Below are positions 3,802-46,519 of a stretch of 64,000 bases of DNA, piece after piece. The stretch comes from an uncultured Nitrososphaerota archaeon. Lineage in GTDB: Archaea; Thermoproteota; Nitrososphaeria; Nitrososphaerales; CADDZS01. Numbering within the stretch: the first letter of the stretch is position 1; the number at the start of each line of letters is the position of its first letter. The notes beneath the pieces were generated by a model. That model worked only from the letters and a program-made list of their open reading frames with translations. It did no database searches and was not told the origin of the DNA. The stretch covers positions 64,001 through 128,000 of the forward strand of contig CAWCYI010000004.1 of the NCBI GenBank assembly GCA_963799845.1. Reading direction: 5' to 3'. The position numbers were made by a program, and so were the translations under genes.

Positions 3802-4131
3802 TCGGTTTGCACCAGAATACCCACCTGCGTTGATCAACGATAACGGTCTGGGTAAAATAGCGTTCACTTTGCGCTAAAAATTATCAACTAGTTTTGACCA
3901 GGCACAAATCACATCTCATTAGTCCTGCCATATCCCATCTCACAAAACTTCTAAATATGCCGGGGGAACCTTCTGTTTTCGGTAACAAGTTTGGGTGACT
4001 ACCAAATCCGTCGGCGCTTTCCATAAGTCGACTGGCACGAATTTTTCATCTCCTCAGTTTCAAACTTTGCATGCGGATATTATGTCAGACAATCGTGTAA
4101 TCTCAATAACCACGGGAGGTCGGCACACATT

Positions 4132-7100
4132 TTGACAATGGTATCTTCTGAGAAGGTACAGCCTATTCTCTCAAGCTCCTACAACGGAAAGCTGATCGAA
4201 GATGAGATTCGTCAGAGATGGAAGAATGAGAATCTTCGAGAGAAAATTCATCAAAAATTTTCGAAAAAACGACCGAAAGAGGTAGGTTACGTAGACGGCC
4301 CTCCCACTCTCAATGGGGAACCGCACATGGGCCATCTTAGAGGCCGTGTGATGAAAGACCTCTGGTACCGTTTTGAGACCATACGAGGATTATACATAGA
4401 TTTCAAAGGGGGCTGGGACTGCCAGGGGCTCCCTGTAGAACTACAAGCTGAGAAAGAACTTGGGCTTACGGGAAACAAGACGAGCAATCTCAAGGCGATA
4501 GGTGAAGAAACTCTAGTCGAAGCCTGCAAAAAGATGGTGATTCGTTATCATTCGATATGGAGAGATTCGGATGAAAAAATTGGCTTGATGATCGACGATG
4601 AGAAAGCTTACTGGACTTATCGTGATCAATACATCGAAAGAGAGTGGCACATTCTAAAGTCCGCGTGGCAGAACGGTATTCTGTCAGAGGGATATCGCGT
4701 CACTCCATTCTGCCCCAGCTGCCAGACATCGCTGAGCGCGGGCGAGGTAGCGCTAGGCGGATACGAAAACTTGGAAGATCCGTCCATGTACTTCAAAATG
4801 AGGATTCGTGGGGAGGATTCTACCTTCCTTGTGGCGTGGACTACAATGCCATTTACTGTAATTACCGACGAGCTTGTAGGGGTAAAGCCCGAGTCTGATT
4901 ACTGCTTCGTAAGCGTTCCCGCGCCGAATGGAACTCGGGAGACTTGGATTGTCGGAGCCGATCGCCTCGAAGGATTGATGAAGGAGCTTCGGATTCAGAG
5001 CTTCGAAGTATCGAAGAAGGTTAAGGGGAGCGAGCTCGAGGGAAAAAGATACGACTATCCGCTCACAGATCTGGTCCCGGAACAAGGGAGGATAGATTCT
5101 GAAAACGATCTCGTACACTCGATAGTTGCCGAGGAGTTTGTAGATGTCACTACTGGTTCCGGCCTCGTTCACATGGCCCCGGCTAACGGCGAGGATGATT
5201 TTGAAGTATCGCAGAGAAGACATATTCCGATTTTCAATCCTATAGATGACCAGGCAGTTTTCACGGAAAAGGCAGGAGCTTTTTCCGGCCTATTCGTTCG
5301 CGATTCTGACCAAAAAGTCGGAGACGCCCTGAAAGAAAGGGGATCTCTCTTGCGATATGGAAAATTGAAGCATGAGTATCCGGTCTGCTGGCGTTCCGGA
5401 CACAGACTGGTGTGGCTTGCAAGGCGGGAGTACTTTTACTTCGTTGATAGACTGAAGAACCTCGCCGTCGATGGTGCAAGCAACGTCGAGTATTATTACG
5501 ATCCACCTCGAAACAGGTTCATCGAAATAGTGAAGGAAAAAAGGGCTTGGTGCATTTCACGAGAAAGAGTCTGGGGGACGCCGCTCCCCGTCTGGAAGTG
5601 CGATAATTGCTCCGATAAATTAGGGCTGTTCTCCCGCGAAGATATAGTTCAGCGCGCTAAATCGCTTCCTGATGGCCCTAATTTTGAGCTTCACAGGCCG
5701 TGGGTCGATCGGATAATTGTGGCATGTCCAAAGTGCGGCGGCGACATGAGGAGAGAGCCTTTTGTCCTGGACACTTGGCACAACAGCGGAGCCGCTCCGT
5801 ATGCGGCTCACACCGACAAGGAGTATCACGATTACGTGCCCATGCCCTTCCTCACCGAGGGGATAGACCAAACAAGGGGCTGGGCGTACAGCCTTCTGAT
5901 CGAAAACGTGATCTTGTCAATGAAAGCACAATCTCCTTACGATGCATTTCTCTTCATGGGGCACGTCCTAGACGAAAATGGAGAGAAACTCAGCAAGAGC
6001 AAGGGAAACTTTGTTCCGGTTCGTGAGCTGCTCGATGCAAATTCAGTTGATCTGATTAGATTATATTTGAACTGGAAGGCAAGCCCGATAGACTCAATAA
6101 ACTTCAGCAGAGCAGAGATGCTTACAAGACCTTATCAGATTCTCAGTACGCTTTACCACATGCACGTGTTCTATCTGCAGAACGCCAGTTTTGACGGGTT
6201 TTCATTTTCATTCGATGAATCCATGAAGCGCTTGGAAAAAGCTGACGAATCCGTCTTCAAAAAACAGGATAAGTGGCTGCTCTCAAAACTCGGCCTCTTG
6301 ATCGACGATTGTACAGAAGCTTATGCCGAGGCCCAGTATCATGAAGCAGCGAGAGGGATCGAAAATTTTCTGATAGACCTCCTGAGCCAGACCTACGTCC
6401 CGATCGTTCGCGGAGAGATGTGGGAGGAGAACGAGGAAAGCAGGAACCGACGGCAGATCATTTACTCCGTCCTCGGGATCGTTCTGTATCAGGTTGATCT
6501 AATGCTTCATCCGATATCTCCCTTTGTTACCGATTATCTGGCTGCCAAATGTTTCGATGTAGATTATCTTCTTTTGAAAGAGTGGCCCCAGTCAGAGGCA
6601 AGATTCCGAAACAACCGACTCGAATCGGAATTTGACGTTTTATCCAAACTAGTGTCTCTCACAAATTCCGCAAGGATGAAGGCGAAAGTAAAGAGGCGGT
6701 GGCCGCTCAGTAAGGCAATCTACCTGATGGCAGAACCAGAAAGCGAACTCGTAGTTTCGAACAAGAAATTGCTTCTCGAGCAGGTCAATCTGGTCGATGT
6801 CGAATTTGAAACCGACCCCAAGAGAACGCCGATCAAGGTTTCTGTCAAGCCAAACTATCAACTCGTCGCGCCGAAGGTCAAAAGCAGAATGAACGAGCTT
6901 TCGTCCAAGCTTGCGGCTACCGACGCTGCATGGCTTTTCAATCAGATTTCGGAAGAGGGAAAGGCAAGGCTTCCTGAAATGCCCGATTTCGATTTGACGG
7001 AATCCGATGTTATTTTTGAGTTCTCGGCGGCGGATCCCAAGTTTGTAGTTGCCGAGAATTTTGGAATCGTGGTCGCTCTTGACACTTCCCGCGATGATGA

Positions 7101-7371
7101 CCTCATAGCCCAGGGAATCCTCAGAGACTTGGCGAGAAACCTGCAGTCACTTCGGAAGCAGAAGGGATTCAATCCCACCGATGTTTTGGATTCTGCAAAG
7201 ATAGCTGGCTTGGGAGAACAGACGGTTCAGCTGATTAAATCCAAGACCGACGAGCTTGCATTCCTAGTGAGGGTAAAGAAGGTCGAACTTTCTCCAGAAC
7301 TCCCTGCTGAAAGTGAAGGATGGACGAAAGCAGAGATAGACGGCGCGGAAATCAGAATAGACATTTCTTAG
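4132..7371 (+). CDS. ileS: Isoleucyl-tRNA synthetase
   Basis: DGPPTLNGEPHMGH, GWDCQGLPVE, WTTMPFT editing domain, WCISRERVWGTPLP, KLSKS. Confidence 0.96.
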   Translation: MTMVSSEKVQPILSSSYNGKLIEDEIRQRWKNENLREKIHQKFSKKRPKEVGYVDGPPTLNGEPHMGHLRGRVMKDLWYRFETIRGLYIDFKGGWDCQGLPVELQAEKELGLTGNKTSNLKAIGEETLVEACKKMVIRYHSIWRDSDEKIGLMIDDEKAYWTYRDQYIEREWHILKSAWQNGILSEGYRVTPFCPSCQTSLSAGEVALGGYENLEDPSMYFKMRIRGEDSTFLVAWTTMPFTVITDELVGVKPESDYCFVSVPAPNGTRETWIVGADRLEGLMKELRIQSFEVSKKVKGSELEGKRYDYPLTDLVPEQGRIDSENDLVHSIVAEEFVDVTTGSGLVHMAPANGEDDFEVSQRRHIPIFNPIDDQAVFTEKAGAFSGLFVRDSDQKVGDALKERGSLLRYGKLKHEYPVCWRSGHRLVWLARREYFYFVDRLKNLAVDGASNVEYYYDPPRNRFIEIVKEKRAWCISRERVWGTPLPVWKCDNCSDKLGLFSREDIVQRAKSLPDGPNFELHRPWVDRIIVACPKCGGDMRREPFVLDTWHNSGAAPYAAHTDKEYHDYVPMPFLTEGIDQTRGWAYSLLIENVILSMKAQSPYDAFLFMGHVLDENGEKLSKSKGNFVPVRELLDANSVDLIRLYLNWKASPIDSINFSRAEMLTRPYQILSTLYHMHVFYLQNASFDGFSFSFDESMKRLEKADESVFKKQDKWLLSKLGLLIDDCTEAYAEAQYHEAARGIENFLIDLLSQTYVPIVRGEMWEENEESRNRRQIIYSVLGIVLYQVDLMLHPISPFVTDYLAAKCFDVDYLLLKEWPQSEARFRNNRLESEFDVLSKLVSLTNSARMKAKVKRRWPLSKAIYLMAEPESELVVSNKKLLLEQVNLVDVEFETDPKRTPIKVSVKPNYQLVAPKVKSRMNELSSKLAATDAAWLFNQISEEGKARLPEMPDFDLTESDVIFEFSAADPKFVVAENFGIVVALDTSRDDDLIAQGILRDLARNLQSLRKQKGFNPTDVLDSAKIAGLGEQTVQLIKSKTDELAFLVRVKKVELSPELPAESEGWTKAEIDGAEIRIDIS

Positions 7372-8586: not shown

Positions 8587-9825
8587 ATGCCACTCGTAAG
8601 AATCGGTCTGATCGGAAAGACCAACACTGGAAAAACTACGTTCTACAACTCGGCGACTGCCCAGAGCGCTGAGGTGAGCAACTATGCTTTCACTACAAAG
8701 ACTCCAAACACCGGCGTGGGTCATGCTGCAACATTGTGCGTTCACAGGGAACTTGGAACCAAAACAGACAATCCGAGAAATTCTGTTTGTATTGATGGCT
8801 GGAGGATTATCCCGATTGAAATTATCGACCTCCCTGGTTTGATCAAAGGCGCGTGGCAGGGTCGAGGCCTCGGGAATCAATTTCTCTCGGTTGCCGCGCA
8901 ATCCGATGCTTTGCTTCACATAGTCGATGCTTCGGGCTCGATAGATGCAGACGGGAAAATTTCCAGCCCGGGAGTCGGCGATCCGGTAGCTGACATTGCC
9001 GACATCGAAGAGGAGCTTGCGATGTGGTATCTCAAAATCCTTGACAACAGTTTCGACAAGATCGTTCGCACGATGAAGGGTTCTCCAATGTCGGATTTTG
9101 GCGAGACGGTCAGCGAGCTGATGCAAGGAGTCGGCGTCAAGAGATCTCACGTAATTGAAGCCCTTGGCAGGCAAAAGCTGTACGGCGAGGAGGCAGAAAG
9201 GTGGACTGACGACCAGAGAAGAGAATTTGCGTGGACTCTGAGAGAAGTCTCGAAGCCCACCTTGATAGTTGCAAACAAGATGGACGTGCCGGAAGCAACG
9301 AAAAACTTTGAGAAAATCAGGGAGAGTTATCACGACATGATAGTAGTTCCGGCGAGTGCTGAGTCTGAACTCACCCTCAGGAGGGCAGAGCAGAGCGGGG
9401 CGATACGATACCTTCCGGGAGAGGAACGATTCGACCTTGTAAAGGACGCGAAACTCACGGACAAGCAGCAGTGGGCCCTCTCTCACATCAGCAAAGCGAT
9501 CCTCGGGGAATACATGAGGACAGGAGTACAATTTGCCCTGAACGTAGCTGTATTCAAGCTGCTGAGAATGAACGCAGTATACCCGGTCTCCGATCCGACA
9601 AAATTCTCAGACAATTCGGGTAACATCCTGCCGGATGTCTTCCTGATGCAAAGCGGGTCAACGGTGACTGATCTCGCGCACTCGATCCACTCCGACCTAG
9701 CACGAGGTCTGATTTATGCAGTGGATGCCCGGACTGGTCTGAGACTGCCGGTTGATTATCAGCTGAAAGATCGTGATGTTCTGTCAATCGTTTCAGCCAC
9801 CAAGAAATCAGAGAACAGGAAGTAG
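8587..9825 (+). CDS. ychF: OBG-family YchF-like GTPase/ATPase with TGS domain
   Basis: GKTNTGKTT, YAFTT, DLPGL, GRGLGNQFL, NKMD, C-terminal TGS (IHSDL). Confidence 0.92.
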   Translation: MPLVRIGLIGKTNTGKTTFYNSATAQSAEVSNYAFTTKTPNTGVGHAATLCVHRELGTKTDNPRNSVCIDGWRIIPIEIIDLPGLIKGAWQGRGLGNQFLSVAAQSDALLHIVDASGSIDADGKISSPGVGDPVADIADIEEELAMWYLKILDNSFDKIVRTMKGSPMSDFGETVSELMQGVGVKRSHVIEALGRQKLYGEEAERWTDDQRREFAWTLREVSKPTLIVANKMDVPEATKNFEKIRESYHDMIVVPASAESELTLRRAEQSGAIRYLPGEERFDLVKDAKLTDKQQWALSHISKAILGEYMRTGVQFALNVAVFKLLRMNAVYPVSDPTKFSDNSGNILPDVFLMQSGSTVTDLAHSIHSDLARGLIYAVDARTGLRLPVDYQLKDRDVLSIVSATKKSENRK

Positions 9826-9899: not shown

Positions 9900-10778
9900 A
9901 TGAAATCTATCGGACTAGTCGGCATTGGGCAGATGGGAATGCCGATGGGAAAGAATCTTCTTCGGGTCGGATACGATCTTAAAATATACGCGAGACGTGT
10001 CGAGGCCCTTCACCCTCTTCTGGAGCTAGGTGCCAAATCAGTTGAGAGTCCCGAGTTCGTTTCGAAGAATTCGGAAATAATCGTGTTATCTCTTCCCGCG
10101 CCGCAGGATGTCATTGAAATCATCTTCGGCAATCATGGGCTTGCGTCTGGACTATCAGATGGGAAGACAGTAATCGACACTAGTACAATAGATCCAAAAT
10201 CGTCCAGAGAAATTGCGCACAGATTGAAGGAGATTGGTGTAAACTATCTCGATTCACCCGTGAGCGGAGGACCGGAAGGCGCTACAAGAGCATCACTTAC
10301 GTTCATGGTTGGAGGCAGAAAAGTGACCTTCGAAAAATCCAACGAAATCTTCAGGGTACTTGGCAAGAACATTTTCTACATGGGTGAATCTGGCTCTGGG
10401 AGTGCGGCGAAGCTCGTCAACCAGCTTCTGGTTTCTTCCAACACTCTAGCGAGCGCAGAGGCAATGCAGCTTGCGAAGGCGCTCGGACTGGATTCGAGAC
10501 AGATTATTGAGGTAATTTCTACCAGCGCCGGCGACTCCTTCGCTTTCCGCAGAGTCTCCAAGAAAATAGCCGAAAGAGAATTCGGGGAAGGGTGGCAGAC
10601 CTACCTGCTGGAAAAGGACTTGCGACTTCTCCTCAAGACAAGCTCAGACCTCGGATTGCCCTCGATCAGCGTGAGAACTTCGCTCGAAGTATTTTCGAAA
10701 GCTGTAGCGGAAGGGCTGGGAAAAGTGGATACTTCGAGCGTGATCAAAATTCTTGACGGGATGAGGACTGACGGATAG
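9900..10778 (+). CDS. NAD(P)-dependent beta-hydroxyacid dehydrogenase (3-hydroxyisobutyrate/tartronate semialdehyde reductase family)
   Basis: GIGQMGMPMG Rossmann motif, DSPVSGG, catalytic KLVNQ, KDL. Confidence 0.9.
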   Translation: MKSIGLVGIGQMGMPMGKNLLRVGYDLKIYARRVEALHPLLELGAKSVESPEFVSKNSEIIVLSLPAPQDVIEIIFGNHGLASGLSDGKTVIDTSTIDPKSSREIAHRLKEIGVNYLDSPVSGGPEGATRASLTFMVGGRKVTFEKSNEIFRVLGKNIFYMGESGSGSAAKLVNQLLVSSNTLASAEAMQLAKALGLDSRQIIEVISTSAGDSFAFRRVSKKIAEREFGEGWQTYLLEKDLRLLLKTSSDLGLPSISVRTSLEVFSKAVAEGLGKVDTSSVIKILDGMRTDG

Positions 10779-10780
10779 AC

Positions 10781-11662
10781 TTACCCGTCAAACTCGTTTG
10801 TAGGCAACCCCCTAACATCAACTTTGGCAACGAACAGTCCTCCGCTTAGAGGCTTTGCAGCTAGCACTTTTGGATCCAGCCCATTTTTCGCAGAGGTAAT
10901 GTAAAGCTCATCAAGATTTCTTCCCCCGAAGCAACATGACGTAACCTGATCCGCAGGAATTTCGAAAGTGTCGAGAAGCTTTCCGGTTGAAGGATTCCAC
11001 CTCGTCAATCTCGCTCCTCCCCAGTGAGCGACCCATATCATTCCCTCTTCGTCGACTGCCATTCCATCCGGAGAACCCGGCTGGTTGTTTTGCACGAAAT
11101 CAACGGCCGTCCTTCTATTCTCGATCGCGCCAGTCGCCAATGAATAATCGAAAGCTGACACCTTCAGTGTTGGAGTGTCTATGTAGTACATTACTTTGTT
11201 ATCCGGGCTCCACCCCAGCCCGTTTGATATCGTGACGTTGGGTAGGACTTTATTCAGTTTTTTATTCTTCTCCAGAACGTAAAGTGAACCACTGGAGGAT
11301 CTCTCCTCTCCGTCCATCGTCCCAGCCCAGAACCTCCCTGCAGGATCGCACTTGCCATCATTGAACCTATTTCCGTCCCTTTCTGTTTCTACTTGTTCCG
11401 TCAAAGGAGTGAGCACTTTACTTTCAAGATCCAGTCCGTAATAGCCATGTTGAAGTGTTAGGGCAAGTCCTCCGGCTTTTCTTGGTAAGACGCAGCTGAC
11501 GTCATTAGCCCAAACAACCTCTTCATCGTCAGGATTGTTGGGAGTGTGAGCATAAATGACTCCTTTGTAAATGTCAACCCAGTAGAGAATCTCTTTTTCT
11601 GCGTCCCAGCTCGGGCCCTCGCCCAGCTCGGCTCTCAGGTTTGTGGCAATTTCAGGAATCAT
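10781..11662 (-). CDS. SMP-30/gluconolactonase family protein
   Basis: LGEGPSW, RFNDGKCDPAGRFWAGTM, SNGLGWSPD, PDGMAVD. Confidence 0.93.
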   Translation of the reverse strand: MIPEIATNLRAELGEGPSWDAEKEILYWVDIYKGVIYAHTPNNPDDEEVVWANDVSCVLPRKAGGLALTLQHGYYGLDLESKVLTPLTEQVETERDGNRFNDGKCDPAGRFWAGTMDGEERSSSGSLYVLEKNKKLNKVLPNVTISNGLGWSPDNKVMYYIDTPTLKVSAFDYSLATGAIENRRTAVDFVQNNQPGSPDGMAVDEEGMIWVAHWGGARLTRWNPSTGKLLDTFEIPADQVTSCCFGGRNLDELYITSAKNGLDPKVLAAKPLSGGLFVAKVDVRGLPTNEFDG

Positions 11663-11868: not shown

Positions 11869-11943
11869 TGGTAGGGAACGGCGGACTCGAACGCGCCACC
11901 TCCAGCGAGACCGGCTGGAATCCTGCCCTTGGACCAGCTCCCT
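11869..11943 (-). tRNA. Atypical tRNA / tRNA-like RNA, anticodon position GUC, A1-U72, A73, encoded CCA
   Basis: Minus strand folds as AGGGAGC-UG-GUCC-AAGGGCA-GGAU-U-CCAGC-CGGUCUC-GCUGG-AGGU-GGCG(C)G-UUCGAGU-CCGCC-GUUCCCU-A-CCA; U8, A14, GG in D loop, A15:U48, GUUCGA all present. Confidence 0.85.
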
Positions 11944-11974: not shown

Positions 11975-11993
11975 TAATAAGCAATTTGCTCAT
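11975..11993 (-). promoter_or_regulatory. TATA-like box of the tRNA-like gene overlapped by an AT-centred palindrome (candidate Lrp box)
   Basis: TTATTA (minus strand, 11975-11980) lies 32 nt before nt 1; ATAAGCAATTTGCTCAT 8-1-8 inverted repeat with one mismatch. Confidence 0.45.
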
Positions 11994-12059
11994 AATCTTG
12001 ACAAAATGACGACTGAATGCCTTTATACTTCGGATAAATCCGTCGTATTACCAATAAAA

Positions 12060-12500
12060 ATGGAAGAAAAGGATGAGGCTATAATTCGCAAGTTGAGAAT
12101 TGATTCAAGCGAGTCGGTTTCTGAAATCGCTTCGGACCTTAATTTGCCCAGAACTACGGTTCAGGAGAGAATCAAGAAAATGGTCCAAAATGGTATAATC
12201 AAGAGGTTCACGCTGCAGCTAGATTATTCGAAAATCGGAAAATCAGTAACCGCGTTTATTTTAGTCTCATTCCTCGCAGGAACAGGAGTCTCTCAGAAGG
12301 AGGCTGCCCAGAAAATTGCCGAGATTGATGACGTGTATGAGGTTCATGTCATCTCGGGAGACTGGGACATTATCGCGAAGGCGAGGGGAGAGTCGATCCA
12401 ATCCATTGGCGAACTGGTTCTCGACAAGATCAGAAACGTGAAGGGCGTGGAGAGAACACTCACCTGCACATCTTTTGTCACGATCAAAGAGACTCTGTAA
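12060..12500 (+). CDS. Lrp/AsnC family transcriptional regulator
   Basis: HTH (EIASDLNLPRTTVQERIKKM), GIIKRFT, RAM domain (VHVISGDWD); ATG 12060 lies ~35 nt after a TTTATA box. Confidence 0.93.
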   Translation: MEEKDEAIIRKLRIDSSESVSEIASDLNLPRTTVQERIKKMVQNGIIKRFTLQLDYSKIGKSVTAFILVSFLAGTGVSQKEAAQKIAEIDDVYEVHVISGDWDIIAKARGESIQSIGELVLDKIRNVKGVERTLTCTSFVTIKETL

Positions 12501-12625: not shown

Positions 12626-13561
12626 GTGAATGCACAAGAAGTAATCGCAGACCTCAGAAAACAGGACATTGAAATCCTGACAGAAGAGAGGTTAACCAAG
12701 ATTATCAACGAAATCTCAAAGCCAGTCACGTACATCGGCCTTGAGCCGAGCAACGTCATTCACATCGGGAACCTAAGTGCTTCAATTCCTGTATTCAAGC
12801 TTGCAAAACACGGCTTCCGGGCGATAATACTCCTCGCCGATCTGCATGCCCTCGCGAATGACAAGGGCGAGATCGGGGAAATTCAGAAATTTGCTGAATC
12901 CGATAAAGAGATGTTTGAGAAAGTTGCCAGAAAGATGGGCATCAGTGGCAAGCTCGAATACAAGTTCGGTACCGAGTTTGAGGATCAGAAATACTTTATC
13001 CAGATGTTGAGGCTTTCAAGGGTGATCAACTTTACCGAAGCCGAGAAGAGCATGGACGAGATCAGCAAATCGTCGGTCAGCAGGATGACGTCCTCGTTGA
13101 TTTACCCTCTGATGCAGGTACTTGACATCGGAGAGTTAGGGGTAAATGTCGCGGTCGGTGCGATAGACCAGCGAAAGGTGCACGTTCTGGCGATTGAGAA
13201 TCTCAAGAAGCTCGGGTACCCGACGCCCGTCGCCATTCACTCCAAGGTCATCCTGCAGGGAGTCGATGGAAAGAGAAAGATGAGCAAATCCTTCGGGAAT
13301 ACGATCAATCTAGACGAGAGCCAAGACAGTCTGGAATCAAAGATAAGGAAAGCATACTGCGCTCCCGGCGATGTTGATGTCAATCCTATTCTGGGTTGGT
13401 ACAAAGCTCTGCTCTTTCCAGTCCTCGACCGACCTCTCACCTTCGGTGCCAAGGAAATTGAAAATTTCCCAGTTCTTGAAACGGTTTGGAAGAAAAACGA
13501 GATAACTCCTCAGGAACTAAAACGCTCCGCCGTAAGAGATCTCGCGGAATTGCTAATCTGA
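12626..13561 (+). CDS. tyrS: Archaeal-type tyrosyl-tRNA synthetase, divergent (probable paralogue)
   Basis: YIGLEPS, HIGN, IILLADLHA, YPLMQVLDI, DQRKVH, KMSKS; anticodon-domain motif altered (ITPQELK). Confidence 0.88.
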   Translation: MNAQEVIADLRKQDIEILTEERLTKIINEISKPVTYIGLEPSNVIHIGNLSASIPVFKLAKHGFRAIILLADLHALANDKGEIGEIQKFAESDKEMFEKVARKMGISGKLEYKFGTEFEDQKYFIQMLRLSRVINFTEAEKSMDEISKSSVSRMTSSLIYPLMQVLDIGELGVNVAVGAIDQRKVHVLAIENLKKLGYPTPVAIHSKVILQGVDGKRKMSKSFGNTINLDESQDSLESKIRKAYCAPGDVDVNPILGWYKALLFPVLDRPLTFGAKEIENFPVLETVWKKNEITPQELKRSAVRDLAELLI

Positions 13562-43970: not shown

Positions 43971-45378
43971 TACTGCAGTGAAGAGTACCGGCGGAGTGGA
44001 GTACAGCAGGGTTGCCGAAATCCGCGGGCCGCTGCTCGTGATTGAAGGGGTCACCCGAGCGGCATATGACGAGCTCGTGGAAATCGAAACAGCCGATGGT
44101 AGAAGGCTTGGAAGAGTACTCGAAGTCGGAGGCGGACGAGCCGTGGTGCAGGTATTCGAGGGAACTTCGAGTCTCTCTACGATTGGTACAAAATCGAGAT
44201 TCACAGGCAAAACGATGGAAATTCCGGTTTCAAACGAACTACTCGGAAGGGTCTTCGACGGACTGGGAAGACCAGACGATGGATTGCCTCCTCCGGTAGG
44301 CGAAGATTTCAGAGATGTCAACGGGGCTCCCATAAATCCTGAGCAGCGAGCATATCCTGAGGACTTTATTCAGACAGGCGTTTCAGTTGTCGATGCGATG
44401 ATGACACTCGTCAGGGGGCAGAAACTTCCAATTTTCTCGGGCGCAGGCATGCCCCACAACCAGCTTGCAGCGCAGATTGCAAAACAGGCGACCGTTCTGG
44501 GCGAATCTGAGGAGTTCGCGGTGGTTTTCGCGGCAATTGGCGTCCAGCACGGTGAAGCTGCCTTCTTTCGGCGGACGCTGGAGGAGAGCGGCGCCATCAG
44601 ACGGAGTGCTCTTTTTCTGAACCTTGCGGACGATCCGGCCATCGAGAGAACAATTACCCCGAGAGTTGCCCTAACTGCTGCGGAGTACCTAGCCTTCGAT
44701 CTGGGATATCAAGTTCTTGCCATCATCACAGACATGACAAACTATGCGGAATCGCTCCGGGAGATTAGTGCTGCGAGGGAAGAAGTCCCAGGAAGAAAGG
44801 GATATCCAGGCTATCTTTACACCGACCTTGCTACGATCTATGAAAGGGCAGGTAAGATCAAGGGCAGGAAAGGTTCGGTAACTCAGATGCCGATCCTCTC
44901 AATGCCTTCCGATGATATTACGCACCCAATTCCTGATCTAACGGGCTATATCACAGAGGGCCAGATCGTGCTCGGTCGTGATCTGTTCCGAAAAGGAATT
45001 TATCCTCCGGTCAACGTTCTTTCTAGCCTCTCGAGGCTGCAGAAAGACGGAATCGGAGCTGGCAAAACTAGGGCAGACCACTCTGAAGTTCAAAGTCAAT
45101 TGTATGACGCTTATTCTAGGGCTCAGGAGCTCAGGTCCCTTGCTGAGATTGTAGGCAAAGCTGGTCTCTCTGGAGTTGATGCACAGTATCTCGACTTTGG
45201 CGATGTTTTCGAACAAAGGTTTCTGAAACAGAGCTACGACGAGAACAGGACCATCGAGGATACTCTGAATTTGGCCTGGGACATATTATCGGTCCTCCCC
45301 GAAGGCGAACTGACAAAGATCAGGACGGAGTACATCAAACAGTACTACAAGCCGCAAGTGGCGGCTCAAACGAGCTAG
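43960..45378 (+). CDS. atpB: A/V-type ATP synthase subunit B
   Basis: [40 protein letters not shown]. Confidence 0.97.
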
Positions 45379-45386
45379 AGAAGAAA

Positions 45387-46055
45387 ATGTCCGTAGCTTC
45401 CGGTAACAAGGTTCTCCCCACAAAGATTGGTCTGATCCAGATCAAGAGATCGCTCAGGACTTCTCGAACCGTTTACAAGATACTGGAAGATAAGCGGGAA
45501 GTCCTGCTGAAGCGACTGGATGAAATGATCAACGAGGCTCAAAAATCAAGGGACGACATGTGGGAACCACTCTCTGAAGCATACCGTCAGCTCTTCGACT
45601 CGTATCTCCGGCTTGGACCGGCGAGTGTCGAATCAGTTGCTACTAGCACCCCTCCGACTGTGGATGTTTCGGTGAATGTCAGGACCATCGTCTCCGTGAA
45701 CGTTCCCACAATGAAGATTACGCAGAAGAATGTGGGTCTAACATACGGTTTTGCGGAGACCAACGAATCGATGGACAAGGCCACCAGAATGATGCGCAAC
45801 GTTCTGCCTGGCATTCTCAAAGCGGCGGAGATCGAGAATGCGATTTTCAGACTGGCTACCGAACTGGAGAAAACTCAGCGTTTATTGAATGCGCTTGAAT
45901 TCATCATAATTCCTGGCTATCAGGATAACATCAAATTCATCTCCGCTACATTGGAAGAGAGAGAGCGCGAAGAGTTCGTCAGATTGAAACAGGTAAAACG
46001 CATTCTCGAAAGGAAGAAAGAACTCGTTGAAGCTGTGGCGTCCCCGGAACAATAG
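45387..46055 (+). CDS. atpD: A/V-type ATP synthase subunit D
   Basis: PTKIGL, ILEDKREVL, KTQRLLNALE..IIP, LEEREREEF. Confidence 0.95.
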   Translation: MSVASGNKVLPTKIGLIQIKRSLRTSRTVYKILEDKREVLLKRLDEMINEAQKSRDDMWEPLSEAYRQLFDSYLRLGPASVESVATSTPPTVDVSVNVRTIVSVNVPTMKITQKNVGLTYGFAETNESMDKATRMMRNVLPGILKAAEIENAIFRLATELEKTQRLLNALEFIIIPGYQDNIKFISATLEEREREEFVRLKQVKRILERKKELVEAVASPEQ

Positions 46056-46067
46056 GTGTGATCTAAA

Positions 46068-46226
46068 ATAAATCAGGACGAAATAACTCAAAAGTTCAAA
46101 CGAGTCTCAGATGAAGTAGAGTCGATGGCACAGCAGCTTGAGCAAGACGTGAGAGCAAAGAATGCTGCGATACGAGACGAGACATCGAAAAAGTTCAGCG
46201 GCGTCGTTCAGCTCCTAGGAATCTGA
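46068..46226 (+). CDS. Small (52 aa) coiled-coil protein after atpD, probable ATA start
   Basis: AGGTGTG SD-like motif then ATA; INQDEITQKFKRVSDEVESMAQQLEQDVRAKNAAIRDETSKKFSGVVQLLGI; absent from ORF track. Confidence 0.55.
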   Translation: MNQDEITQKFKRVSDEVESMAQQLEQDVRAKNAAIRDETSKKFSGVVQLLGI

Positions 46227-46274
46227 ACACGCTTTTTTTATAGCCGGTTCCTGAGAACGATTTTTAGAACCGTT

Positions 46275-46399
46275 GCGGTTGTCGTCCAGTCATCCCCTTT
46301 CTCTTGTTGGGGATGGGAAAACCTGGTCTAGGACGTCAGCCCTCCAAGCTGTTGCAGCGAGCAGAGCTGAGAACCCGGGTTCAAATCCCGGCGACCGCA
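46275..46399 (+). tRNA. tRNA-Gly (UCC) with two introns: 15/16 (46290-46321) and 37/38 (46347-46364)
   Basis: Spliced 75-nt cloverleaf GCGGTTG/CGACCGC-A, D-stem GTCC/GGAC, anticodon stem TCAGC/GCTGA, GGTTCAAATCC; BHB-like intron hairpins; TTTTTATA box ~35 nt upstream. Confidence 0.9.
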
Positions 46400-46519
46400 C
46401 ATATTTTCATGGTATCTAATCCGCGACCTAGTTCCTACTTTAGTATAGTAGAACAGAAGTTGAATGACTCCAAACGTAAATCAAGTGTCTCCTCTGCGTC
46501 AAGGGCGCCACGTGGTAGC

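Follow-up and report, generated by a model that had tools for sequence, protein, structure and literature searches.

Transfer RNAs that serve outside elongation are known mainly from bacteria, the cases being the cell-wall tRNA-Gly, relatives of tRNA-Sec and the allo-tRNAs. The non-proteinogenic tRNA-Gly of Staphylococcus has no GG in its D-loop and carries UGC in place of T-Psi-C. In the part of PMC9976931 that treats S. aureus, changes in the T-stem of this tRNA are described as removing it from EF-Tu. The selC* tRNA-Cys combines an A1:U72 pair with a one-base bulge, A51a, in its T-stem (Mukai et al. 2017, as summarized in PMC7609411). Both selC* and the allo-tRNAs are presented there as bacterial; their acceptor and T-stems follow an 8/4 or 9/3 geometry, and they are served by a dedicated synthetase or by SelB (PMC7609411).

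The 75-nt RNA described here is encoded in a 64,000-nt stretch of DNA from an uncultured Nitrososphaerota archaeon, the whole of which we call the window. Like selC* tRNA-Cys and the allo-tRNAs it is a non-canonical tRNA from soil and peat data, and it shares A1:U72 and a T-stem bulge with selC* as portrayed in PMC7609411. Unlike them it comes from an archaeon, and its acceptor stem has 7 bp and its T-stem 5 bp and a bulge. It also resembles the cell-wall tRNA-Gly of Staphylococcus in being an extra copy whose T-stem is altered at the elongation-factor site (PMC9976931), and by analogy this non-proteinogenic tRNA-Gly may be the one whose way of working is closest to that of the 75-nt RNA. It differs from the staphylococcal tRNA in its archaeal origin, its GUC anticodon, its bulge where the other has weak pairs, and in that no co-distributed Fem-type transferase was found. 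The gene and its parts are the following:

11869-11943, minus strand: non-standard tRNA gene of 75 nt, with A1 at 11943 and A76 at 11869
11907-11913, minus strand: anticodon loop C32 G33 G34 U35 C36 U37 C38, with GUC at 11911-11909, G33 at 11912 and U37 at 11908
11893, minus strand: additional C in the 5' strand of the T-stem, which bulges out between G52 and G53
11872, minus strand: discriminator A73
11871-11869, minus strand: encoded CCA

The reverse complement of 11869-11943 begins with AGGGAGC and ends in ACCA. Its MFE fold is a cloverleaf and ARAGORN, run at -ps90, draws the identical cloverleaf as tRNA-Asp(gtc), so that the cloverleaf reported for this interval in an earlier note is exact in sequence, fold and drawing alike. 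The acceptor stem has 7 bp, among them A1-U72 and one G6.U67. In the window variant the D-stem has 4 bp with G10.U25, the anticodon stem has 5 bp, and a T-stem of GGCG[C]G/CCGCC closes the T-loop UUCGAGU. The variable loop is 4 nt long with U48 as its last base, and by reading, the core bases U8, A14 and A15 and a GGG in the D-loop are kept.

Scoring by tRNA finders, which had been put forward as a check, misses the gene at standard thresholds. At default settings ARAGORN reports no tRNA across the entire window and the 75-nt RNA appears only at -ps90, and the Rfam tRNA model (RF00005) gives no match at E<=10 within the 801 nt around it; the RNA thus falls short of the family thresholds that a standard elongator would pass. 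In the window's own genome, G000 (4.6 Mb in 9 contigs, 47% G+C, 87% complete), RF00005 yields 33 matches, with the 75-nt RNA missing among them, and only 12 matches pass the cut-off. The folding energy is ordinary for the composition, with a z-score of -0.68 and 48 of 200 shuffles folding equally well. Judged as a lone sequence the 75-nt RNA is not above chance, and it is the comparison of homologues that settles its reality. Standard tRNA finders overlook real genes in this Nitrososphaerales lineage, and the tRNA counts behind MAG quality will be wrong for it, since nearly every tRNA in the lineage is intron-disrupted.

Introns, one or two per gene and often at non-canonical sites, interrupt nearly all tRNA genes of G000. 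Within the window, a Gly(UCC)-type tRNA piece at 46318-46402 (plus strand) has an 18-nt insert after the anticodon stem and ends in GCA/CAT with no CCA; its expected 5' acceptor strand is not directly upstream, and a further intron or a split gene may account for this. An ARAGORN call of a 'tRNA-Trp with 1737-nt intron' at 44571-46400 is false, as the supposed intron reads as protein-coding. A loop-motif search of G000 for an initiator tRNA found none. The tRNA-Pro genes of the lineage encode CCA too (C4:167506-167564 in G000, and loci L055 and L068 in G005). The contrast previously drawn between the encoded CCA and the host therefore stands for the Gly piece of the window, which has no CCA, and fails as a mark of uniqueness.

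Fifteen distinct variants of the RNA were recovered, from 8 of the 13 genomes of one Nitrososphaerales MAG family and from 21 metagenome contigs, and the RNA is a single-copy gene confined to this one family of uncultured soil and peat Nitrososphaerales. When the 75 nt were compared by BLAST with 61 related genomes, four genomes of the same genus matched over the full length (96-100% identity) and two further genera of the family over 68 nt (79-84%). Four of these homologues were used to build a covariance model, which scores 13 of the 15 variants at 92-100 bits and the divergent copies of G010 and G011 at 58.5 and 48.6 bits, respectively; the G011 copy, which lies next to the syntenic GTPase gene, came to light only when filters were switched off. 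Across 138 genomes from the order's other families the top matches of the model are ordinary tRNAs, the best being tRNA-Gly(CCC) at 59-64 bits. A loose pattern, composed of the acceptor end, the U8/G10-U11 spacing and a CNNGUCUCG loop, matches once in each of 8 of the 13 family genomes with no control matches; it has no match in G001, G002, G003, G007 and G009 (58-88% complete), the unpublished genome G001 being counted only as a non-match. The same pattern finds 2 stretches in 400 other genomes of the class, neither of them tRNA-like, as compared to 3 control matches. With a stricter pattern, 185,579 species genomes gave 6 true and 2 chance stretches and a metagenome collection gave 21 true and 2 chance stretches. 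We found no description of the 75-nt RNA in the literature, the supplements and the irregular peat-soil tRNA tables of the original allo-tRNA paper lying outside the scope of that search.

The RNA is below threshold in ARAGORN and Rfam, and in G000 2 kb of extra genes separate it from the GTPase gene, both of which would fit a decaying tRNA pseudogene or an att-site remnant. The comparative data refute this explanation and leave it practically no probability. In a model-fitted alignment of the 15 variants, standard pairs fill 99.4% of the 315 pair cells, and both sides have changed in 12 of the 21 pairs, values that none of 500 shuffles reached, and sliding the partners lowers pairing to 39-56%. 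The four-arm cloverleaf of an elongator is kept by compensatory change in all four stems. RNAalifold independently predicts the same structure, bulge included, and an unfitted, MAFFT-only alignment of 4 sequences gives this structure as well. Neither uncompensated decay nor partial duplication of a host tRNA was seen; G000 has neither a partial copy of the RNA elsewhere nor a repeat of its 3' end, and a putative promoter motif is conserved upstream of the gene. Phage and plasmid collections hold no match and the single pattern match in viral contigs is a chance one and not a tRNA, and we accordingly reject a mobile or viral origin.

The identical 75-mer is found in 10 distinct genomic contexts whose flanks are 28-35% identical, which is the random level, indicating selection on all 75 positions in that genus; the Lrp coding DNA beside identical 75-mers averages 70% identity. 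Independent assemblies from the 10 contexts all carry G33, U37 and the bulged C, which are thus no assembly or sequencing errors, and these irregularities noted in the first reading of the DNA are genuine. Its claim of a hidden, intact tRNA-like gene selected for shape is borne out by the compensatory changes in all four stems, and the covariation among homologues that it had named as a check shows compensated change (12 of 21 pairs) instead of random decay. On this comparative evidence we conclude that the 75-nt RNA is a genuine conserved gene whose shape is under selection.

Which positions are held and which are let go differs along the molecule. All 15 variants have A1-U72, G2-C71, G3-C70, C31-G39, G53-C61, A73 and the loop bases G34-U35-C36-U37-C38, and 14 of them have G10.U25 and, likewise, C32. 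Most variants keep the L-shape core bases. At position 33, 11 variants have G, 3 have A and 1 has U, and position 37 is U in every one, so that the U33 and purine 37 of elongators are not found together in any variant. The T-stem, an uninterrupted 5-bp helix in elongators, carries a bulge of 1-4 nt in 14 of the 15 (C, U, AC, CUU, CUUU or shifted) and none in G011. CCA is encoded in 12, the exceptions reading UCA, UUU and CUU. The bulge and the encoded CCA that had drawn attention are thus present in the window variant without defining the RNA, as G011 has neither and 3 of the 15 are without CCA. Taken together, the rule-breaking features (a position 33 that is not fixed as U, U37, a T-stem with an interruption, and A1-U72) have been conserved or tolerated and are not the products of decay. 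The copies in G011 (L110:828-903) and G010 (L032:1501-1576) have a D-loop without GG and a T-loop of UGCAAUU or UGCGACG, with G at 55. [quoted passage not shown]

The kept features would correspond to what is needed for folding, end processing and recognition by a synthetase that reads the anticodon. The relaxed or changed sites, namely U33, purine 37, the T-stem and A1-U72, with the D- and T-loops in two lineages, would be those used by the elongation factor and the ribosome. As the shape is kept and yet several rules of decoding tRNAs are broken, the RNA probably has a job outside ordinary protein synthesis. An A1-U72 pair, with A73, is the mark of initiator tRNA and disfavours the elongation factor; initiators are otherwise defined by a CAU anticodon and three G-C pairs at 29-31/39-41. 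The 75-nt RNA is like the archaeal and eukaryotic initiator in having A1-U72 and A73, and unlike it in having GUC instead of CAU and A29-U41 in place of one of the three G-C pairs. The case for evasion of the elongation factor is weakened in that its main argument, the T-stem bulge, is missing in G011. Also, ordinary tRNAs mutated at U33 or R37 are impaired without being inactive, and hence some decoding by the 75-nt RNA is conceivable.

The cell has another tRNA for aspartate. The canonical tRNA-Asp of G000 (C4:488361-488476) has the loop UGUCAC with U33 and A37, a G1-C72 first pair, G73, two introns and no CCA, and is unrelated in sequence to the 75-nt RNA. We verified a canonical tRNA-Asp in 11 of the 13 family genomes, including all 8 that have the 75-nt RNA, as well as G007 and G009, in which the latter was not found. 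It has two introns in every genome, the exons being nearly identical and the introns wholly different between genomes. The 75-nt RNA is therefore accessory and is not the cell's tRNA-Asp. It is like canonical archaeal tRNA-Asp(GUC) in its cloverleaf, GUC, C38, G10.U25 and L-shape core bases, and unlike it in A1-U72, A73, the unfixed position 33, U37 and the T-stem bulge. Unlike the two-intron tRNA-Asp of the family it is intronless, usually encodes CCA, is accessory and is linked to Lrp.

These observations bear on the possibility that the RNA is an eccentric but working second tRNA-Asp isoacceptor, intronless, separately regulated and in no need of splicing, in which modifications or context offset N33 and U37. 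The invariance of the GUC anticodon and C38, the core bases kept in most variants and a neighbourhood rich in aminoacyl-tRNA synthetases and translation genes (AspRS, IleRS, a YchF-like GTPase and TyrRS) are in its favour, and an intron-free copy could be useful where the canonical tRNA-Asp has two introns everywhere. We hold such an isoacceptor to be unlikely, if a serious contender, as position 33 drifts among G, A and U, position 37 is always a pyrimidine, the canonical G1-C72 and G73 have given way to A1-U72 and A73, a bulge breaks the T-stem of 14 of the 15 variants, D-loop GG and U55 are lost in two lineages, and the searches did not find the RNA in G007 and G009, which have the canonical tRNA-Asp.

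Which amino acid would the RNA carry? In the part of PMC9976931 that deals with aspartate, the strong and evolutionarily conserved determinants are G73, G34, U35, C36 and C38, G10.U25 is a determinant in yeast, and human mt-tRNA-Asp works naturally with A73. The loop determinants G34, U35, C36 and C38 are present in all 15 variants of the 75-nt RNA, all of which have A73 as opposed to the G73 of canonical tRNA-Asp. Since G73, a strong determinant, is replaced throughout, the Asp identity is weakened. The earlier statement that the RNA matches no standard identity set is still too strong, for four of the five strong Asp determinants listed in that part of PMC9976931 are found in 15 of 15 variants and G10.U25 in 14 of 15. 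Archaeal tRNA-Tyr, as treated in the same source, is identified by C1-G72, A73 and G34 U35 A36 (PMC9976931); the 75-nt RNA, with its invariant A1-U72 and C36, has neither C1-G72 nor A36.

Charging with an amino acid other than aspartate, for instance by GlyRS, has some appeal as the best covariance matches outside the family, at 59-64 bits, are to tRNA-Gly(CCC), and A73 and G3-C70 fit tRNA-Gly. The archaeal Gly determinants, given for A. pernix in part of PMC9976931 as C35, C36, C2-G71 and G3-C70, include C35 and C2-G71, in place of which the 75-nt RNA has invariant U35 and G2-C71. Global identity to tRNA-Gly (67-71%) is barely above that to tRNA-Val and tRNA-Ala (63-69%). We consider non-Asp charging very improbable; an origin from tRNA-Gly, hinted at by the model scores, is a possibility that the same identity values hardly set apart from an origin from tRNA-Val or tRNA-Ala. 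An alternative register, with U35 as the U-turn and CUC as the anticodon, was rejected, as it needs a 3-bp stem that the G008 variant cannot form.

G000 encodes one AspRS, of archaeal type, together with an AsnRS and an AsnA-type synthetase. The pattern of conservation and the presence of these enzymes lead us to favour an accessory RNA that is no ordinary elongator. A dedicated synthetase was rejected, the genome having one AspRS and one TyrRS, both with ordinary scores. The TyrRS gene adjacent to the locus (12626-13561, plus strand; an NCBIfam equivalog with 266 bits against a cut-off of 220) is no dedicated partner, since it is the only TyrRS of the genome and of equivalog grade. It reads HIGN at the class I signature site, where HIGH is usual. 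Synthesis of asparagine on a tRNA was another rejected candidate: no GatCAB-type GatB is present in the 87%-complete G000, which has AsnRS and an AsnA-type synthetase, and the only GatB_N match is a 664-aa frame, a length that we take to be that of GatE. A dedicated elongation factor was likewise set aside, as one GTP_EFTU_D3 match and no second EF1A-like factor were found in the same 87%-complete genome; its aEF1A lies in the region C4:291482-291799.

Upstream of the RNA, in the opposite orientation, lies a regulator gene, and between the two a conserved element:

12006-12500, plus strand: Lrp/AsnC-family regulator gene (Pfam AsnC_trans_reg and HTH_AsnC), divergent from the RNA and 62 nt from it
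11975-11991: palindromic element GAGCAnnnTGCTTATTA (minus-strand reading), conserved and containing a TATA-like hexamer

The Lrp gene adjoins the 5' end of the RNA divergently in every locus with enough flank. Counted upstream, the TATA-like hexamer lies 32-37 nt from A1 in one direction and 26-31 nt from the Lrp ATG in the other. When the upstream regions of 26 distinct flank contexts are aligned, almost every one shows the motif, at about -45 to -30, and the 3' flanks of the loci are T-rich. Judging from this spacing, set beside the established spacing of archaeal TATA elements, the 62-bp intergenic region appears to be a shared or back-to-back archaeal promoter.

At E<=1e-25 a search for orthologs of this Lrp divides the family just as the RNA does: all 8 genomes with the RNA have an ortholog, and the other 5 gave neither. 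The double absence in incomplete MAGs is partly due to both adjoining on one locus. Outside the family, 1 of 48 genomes has an ortholog (53% identity), with no such RNA within 2 kb. In G007 (88% complete) a different ORF occupies the syntenic site next to the YchF-like GTPase gene, and both the RNA and Lrp are missing there; in G009 the contig ends before the site can be judged. The RNA and the divergent Lrp gene are a two-gene module. Synteny in the family runs IleRS, an MBL/beta-CASP protein, the YchF-like GTPase with its TGS domain, RNA and Lrp, and in four other families neither a tRNA nor an Lrp gene lies within 1.5 kb of the GTPase ortholog, which gives no sign of an origin in situ. Within 14 kb, the window has the 3' part of AspRS (1-620), IleRS (4027-7368), the YchF-like TGS-domain GTPase (8587-9825) and TyrRS (12626-13561). 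In G000, genes resembling 3-hydroxyisobutyrate dehydrogenase and SMP-30/gluconolactonase (9900-11662) stand between the GTPase gene and the 3' end of the RNA. These two genes, which span 2 kb, are missing there in G005, G008, G010, G011 and G012, and look like an insertion.

So tight a link to a regulator gene would also suit an RNA that is never charged, a regulatory tRNA mimic or decoy whose GUCUC loop and A73(CCA) end are read by a protein, such as AspRS, Lrp or an anticodon nuclease, or by a complementary RNA, in a sensing or buffering role. That conservation is concentrated in five loop bases and the acceptor end, and that some family members dispense with the RNA, agree with this possibility. 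We nonetheless find such a mimic improbable, as a full tRNA core and a processing-competent acceptor stem exceed the needs of a protein-binding hairpin, and the promoter motif gives no signal of an Lrp regulon, with 2 matches genome-wide as compared to about 4 expected.

In a peat metatranscriptome, one 191-nt contig with a depth of 8.3 covers 11869-11941. It starts 2 nt inside the 5' end and runs 118 nt past CCA into the flank of another strain. Two other RNA runs and one DNA run yielded nothing for the 75-nt RNA. These data argue only weakly for expression, since the contigs show neither ends nor strand and DNA carry-over is possible.

A transferase dependent on aminoacyl-tRNA and co-occurring with the 75-nt RNA was not found among the FemAB-like and DUF2156 proteins searched. 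A FemAB-like ORF was rejected as a partner, being present in 2 of 61 related genomes and not co-distributed with the RNA. This ORF of 348 aa (L124:1048-2094, equivalent to C6:1483494-1484537 in G000) lies in a sugar-modification cluster, between a DegT-like aminotransferase-type ORF and a methyltransferase-like ORF as judged by eye from the translations. DUF2156/LPG_synthase_C has no match in the 87%-complete G000. Lant_dehydr_N has none either, and its control matched nowhere.

Returning to the reading that we prefer, we tentatively propose, with somewhat less than even confidence, that the 75-nt RNA is an accessory, Lrp-linked and probably Asp-chargeable tRNA that is no ordinary elongator, its function being deduced from the comparisons above. 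The RNA would be transcribed from its own promoter under the control of the neighbouring, amino-acid-sensing Lrp, and processed as a tRNA. Its anticodon loop would then be recognized, most plausibly by the cell's single AspRS, and the RNA charged. Once charged it would serve outside ordinary elongation, either carrying aminoacyl groups or taking a titrating or signalling role, and routine decoding of GAY codons would be left to the canonical tRNA-Asp that the cell also has. The analysis establishes the gene with its structure, pattern of conservation, module and distribution, and we infer that its transcription is controlled, that it is charged and that it is kept from aEF1A and the ribosome.

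A bolder version of this proposal, which is possible and which we regard as doubtful, makes the RNA the first archaeal tRNA dedicated to a non-decoding role. It would be amino-acid-responsive and co-transcribed with Lrp from a shared promoter, charged through its Asp-type loop and kept off aEF1A and the ribosome by A1-U72, the altered T-arm and the loop without U33 and with U37, and it would act either as an aminoacyl donor to some pathway or as a sensor or titrator of the charging capacity of AspRS.

The 75-nt RNA would provide a natural experiment in which the features of a tRNA that serve folding, processing and charging are set apart from those that serve decoding. If the preferred reading is true, an archaeal case tied to a feast/famine-type regulator would add to the bacterial ones, and tRNA-based metabolism or signalling could then be tested in a soil and peat lineage that is abundant but uncultured.
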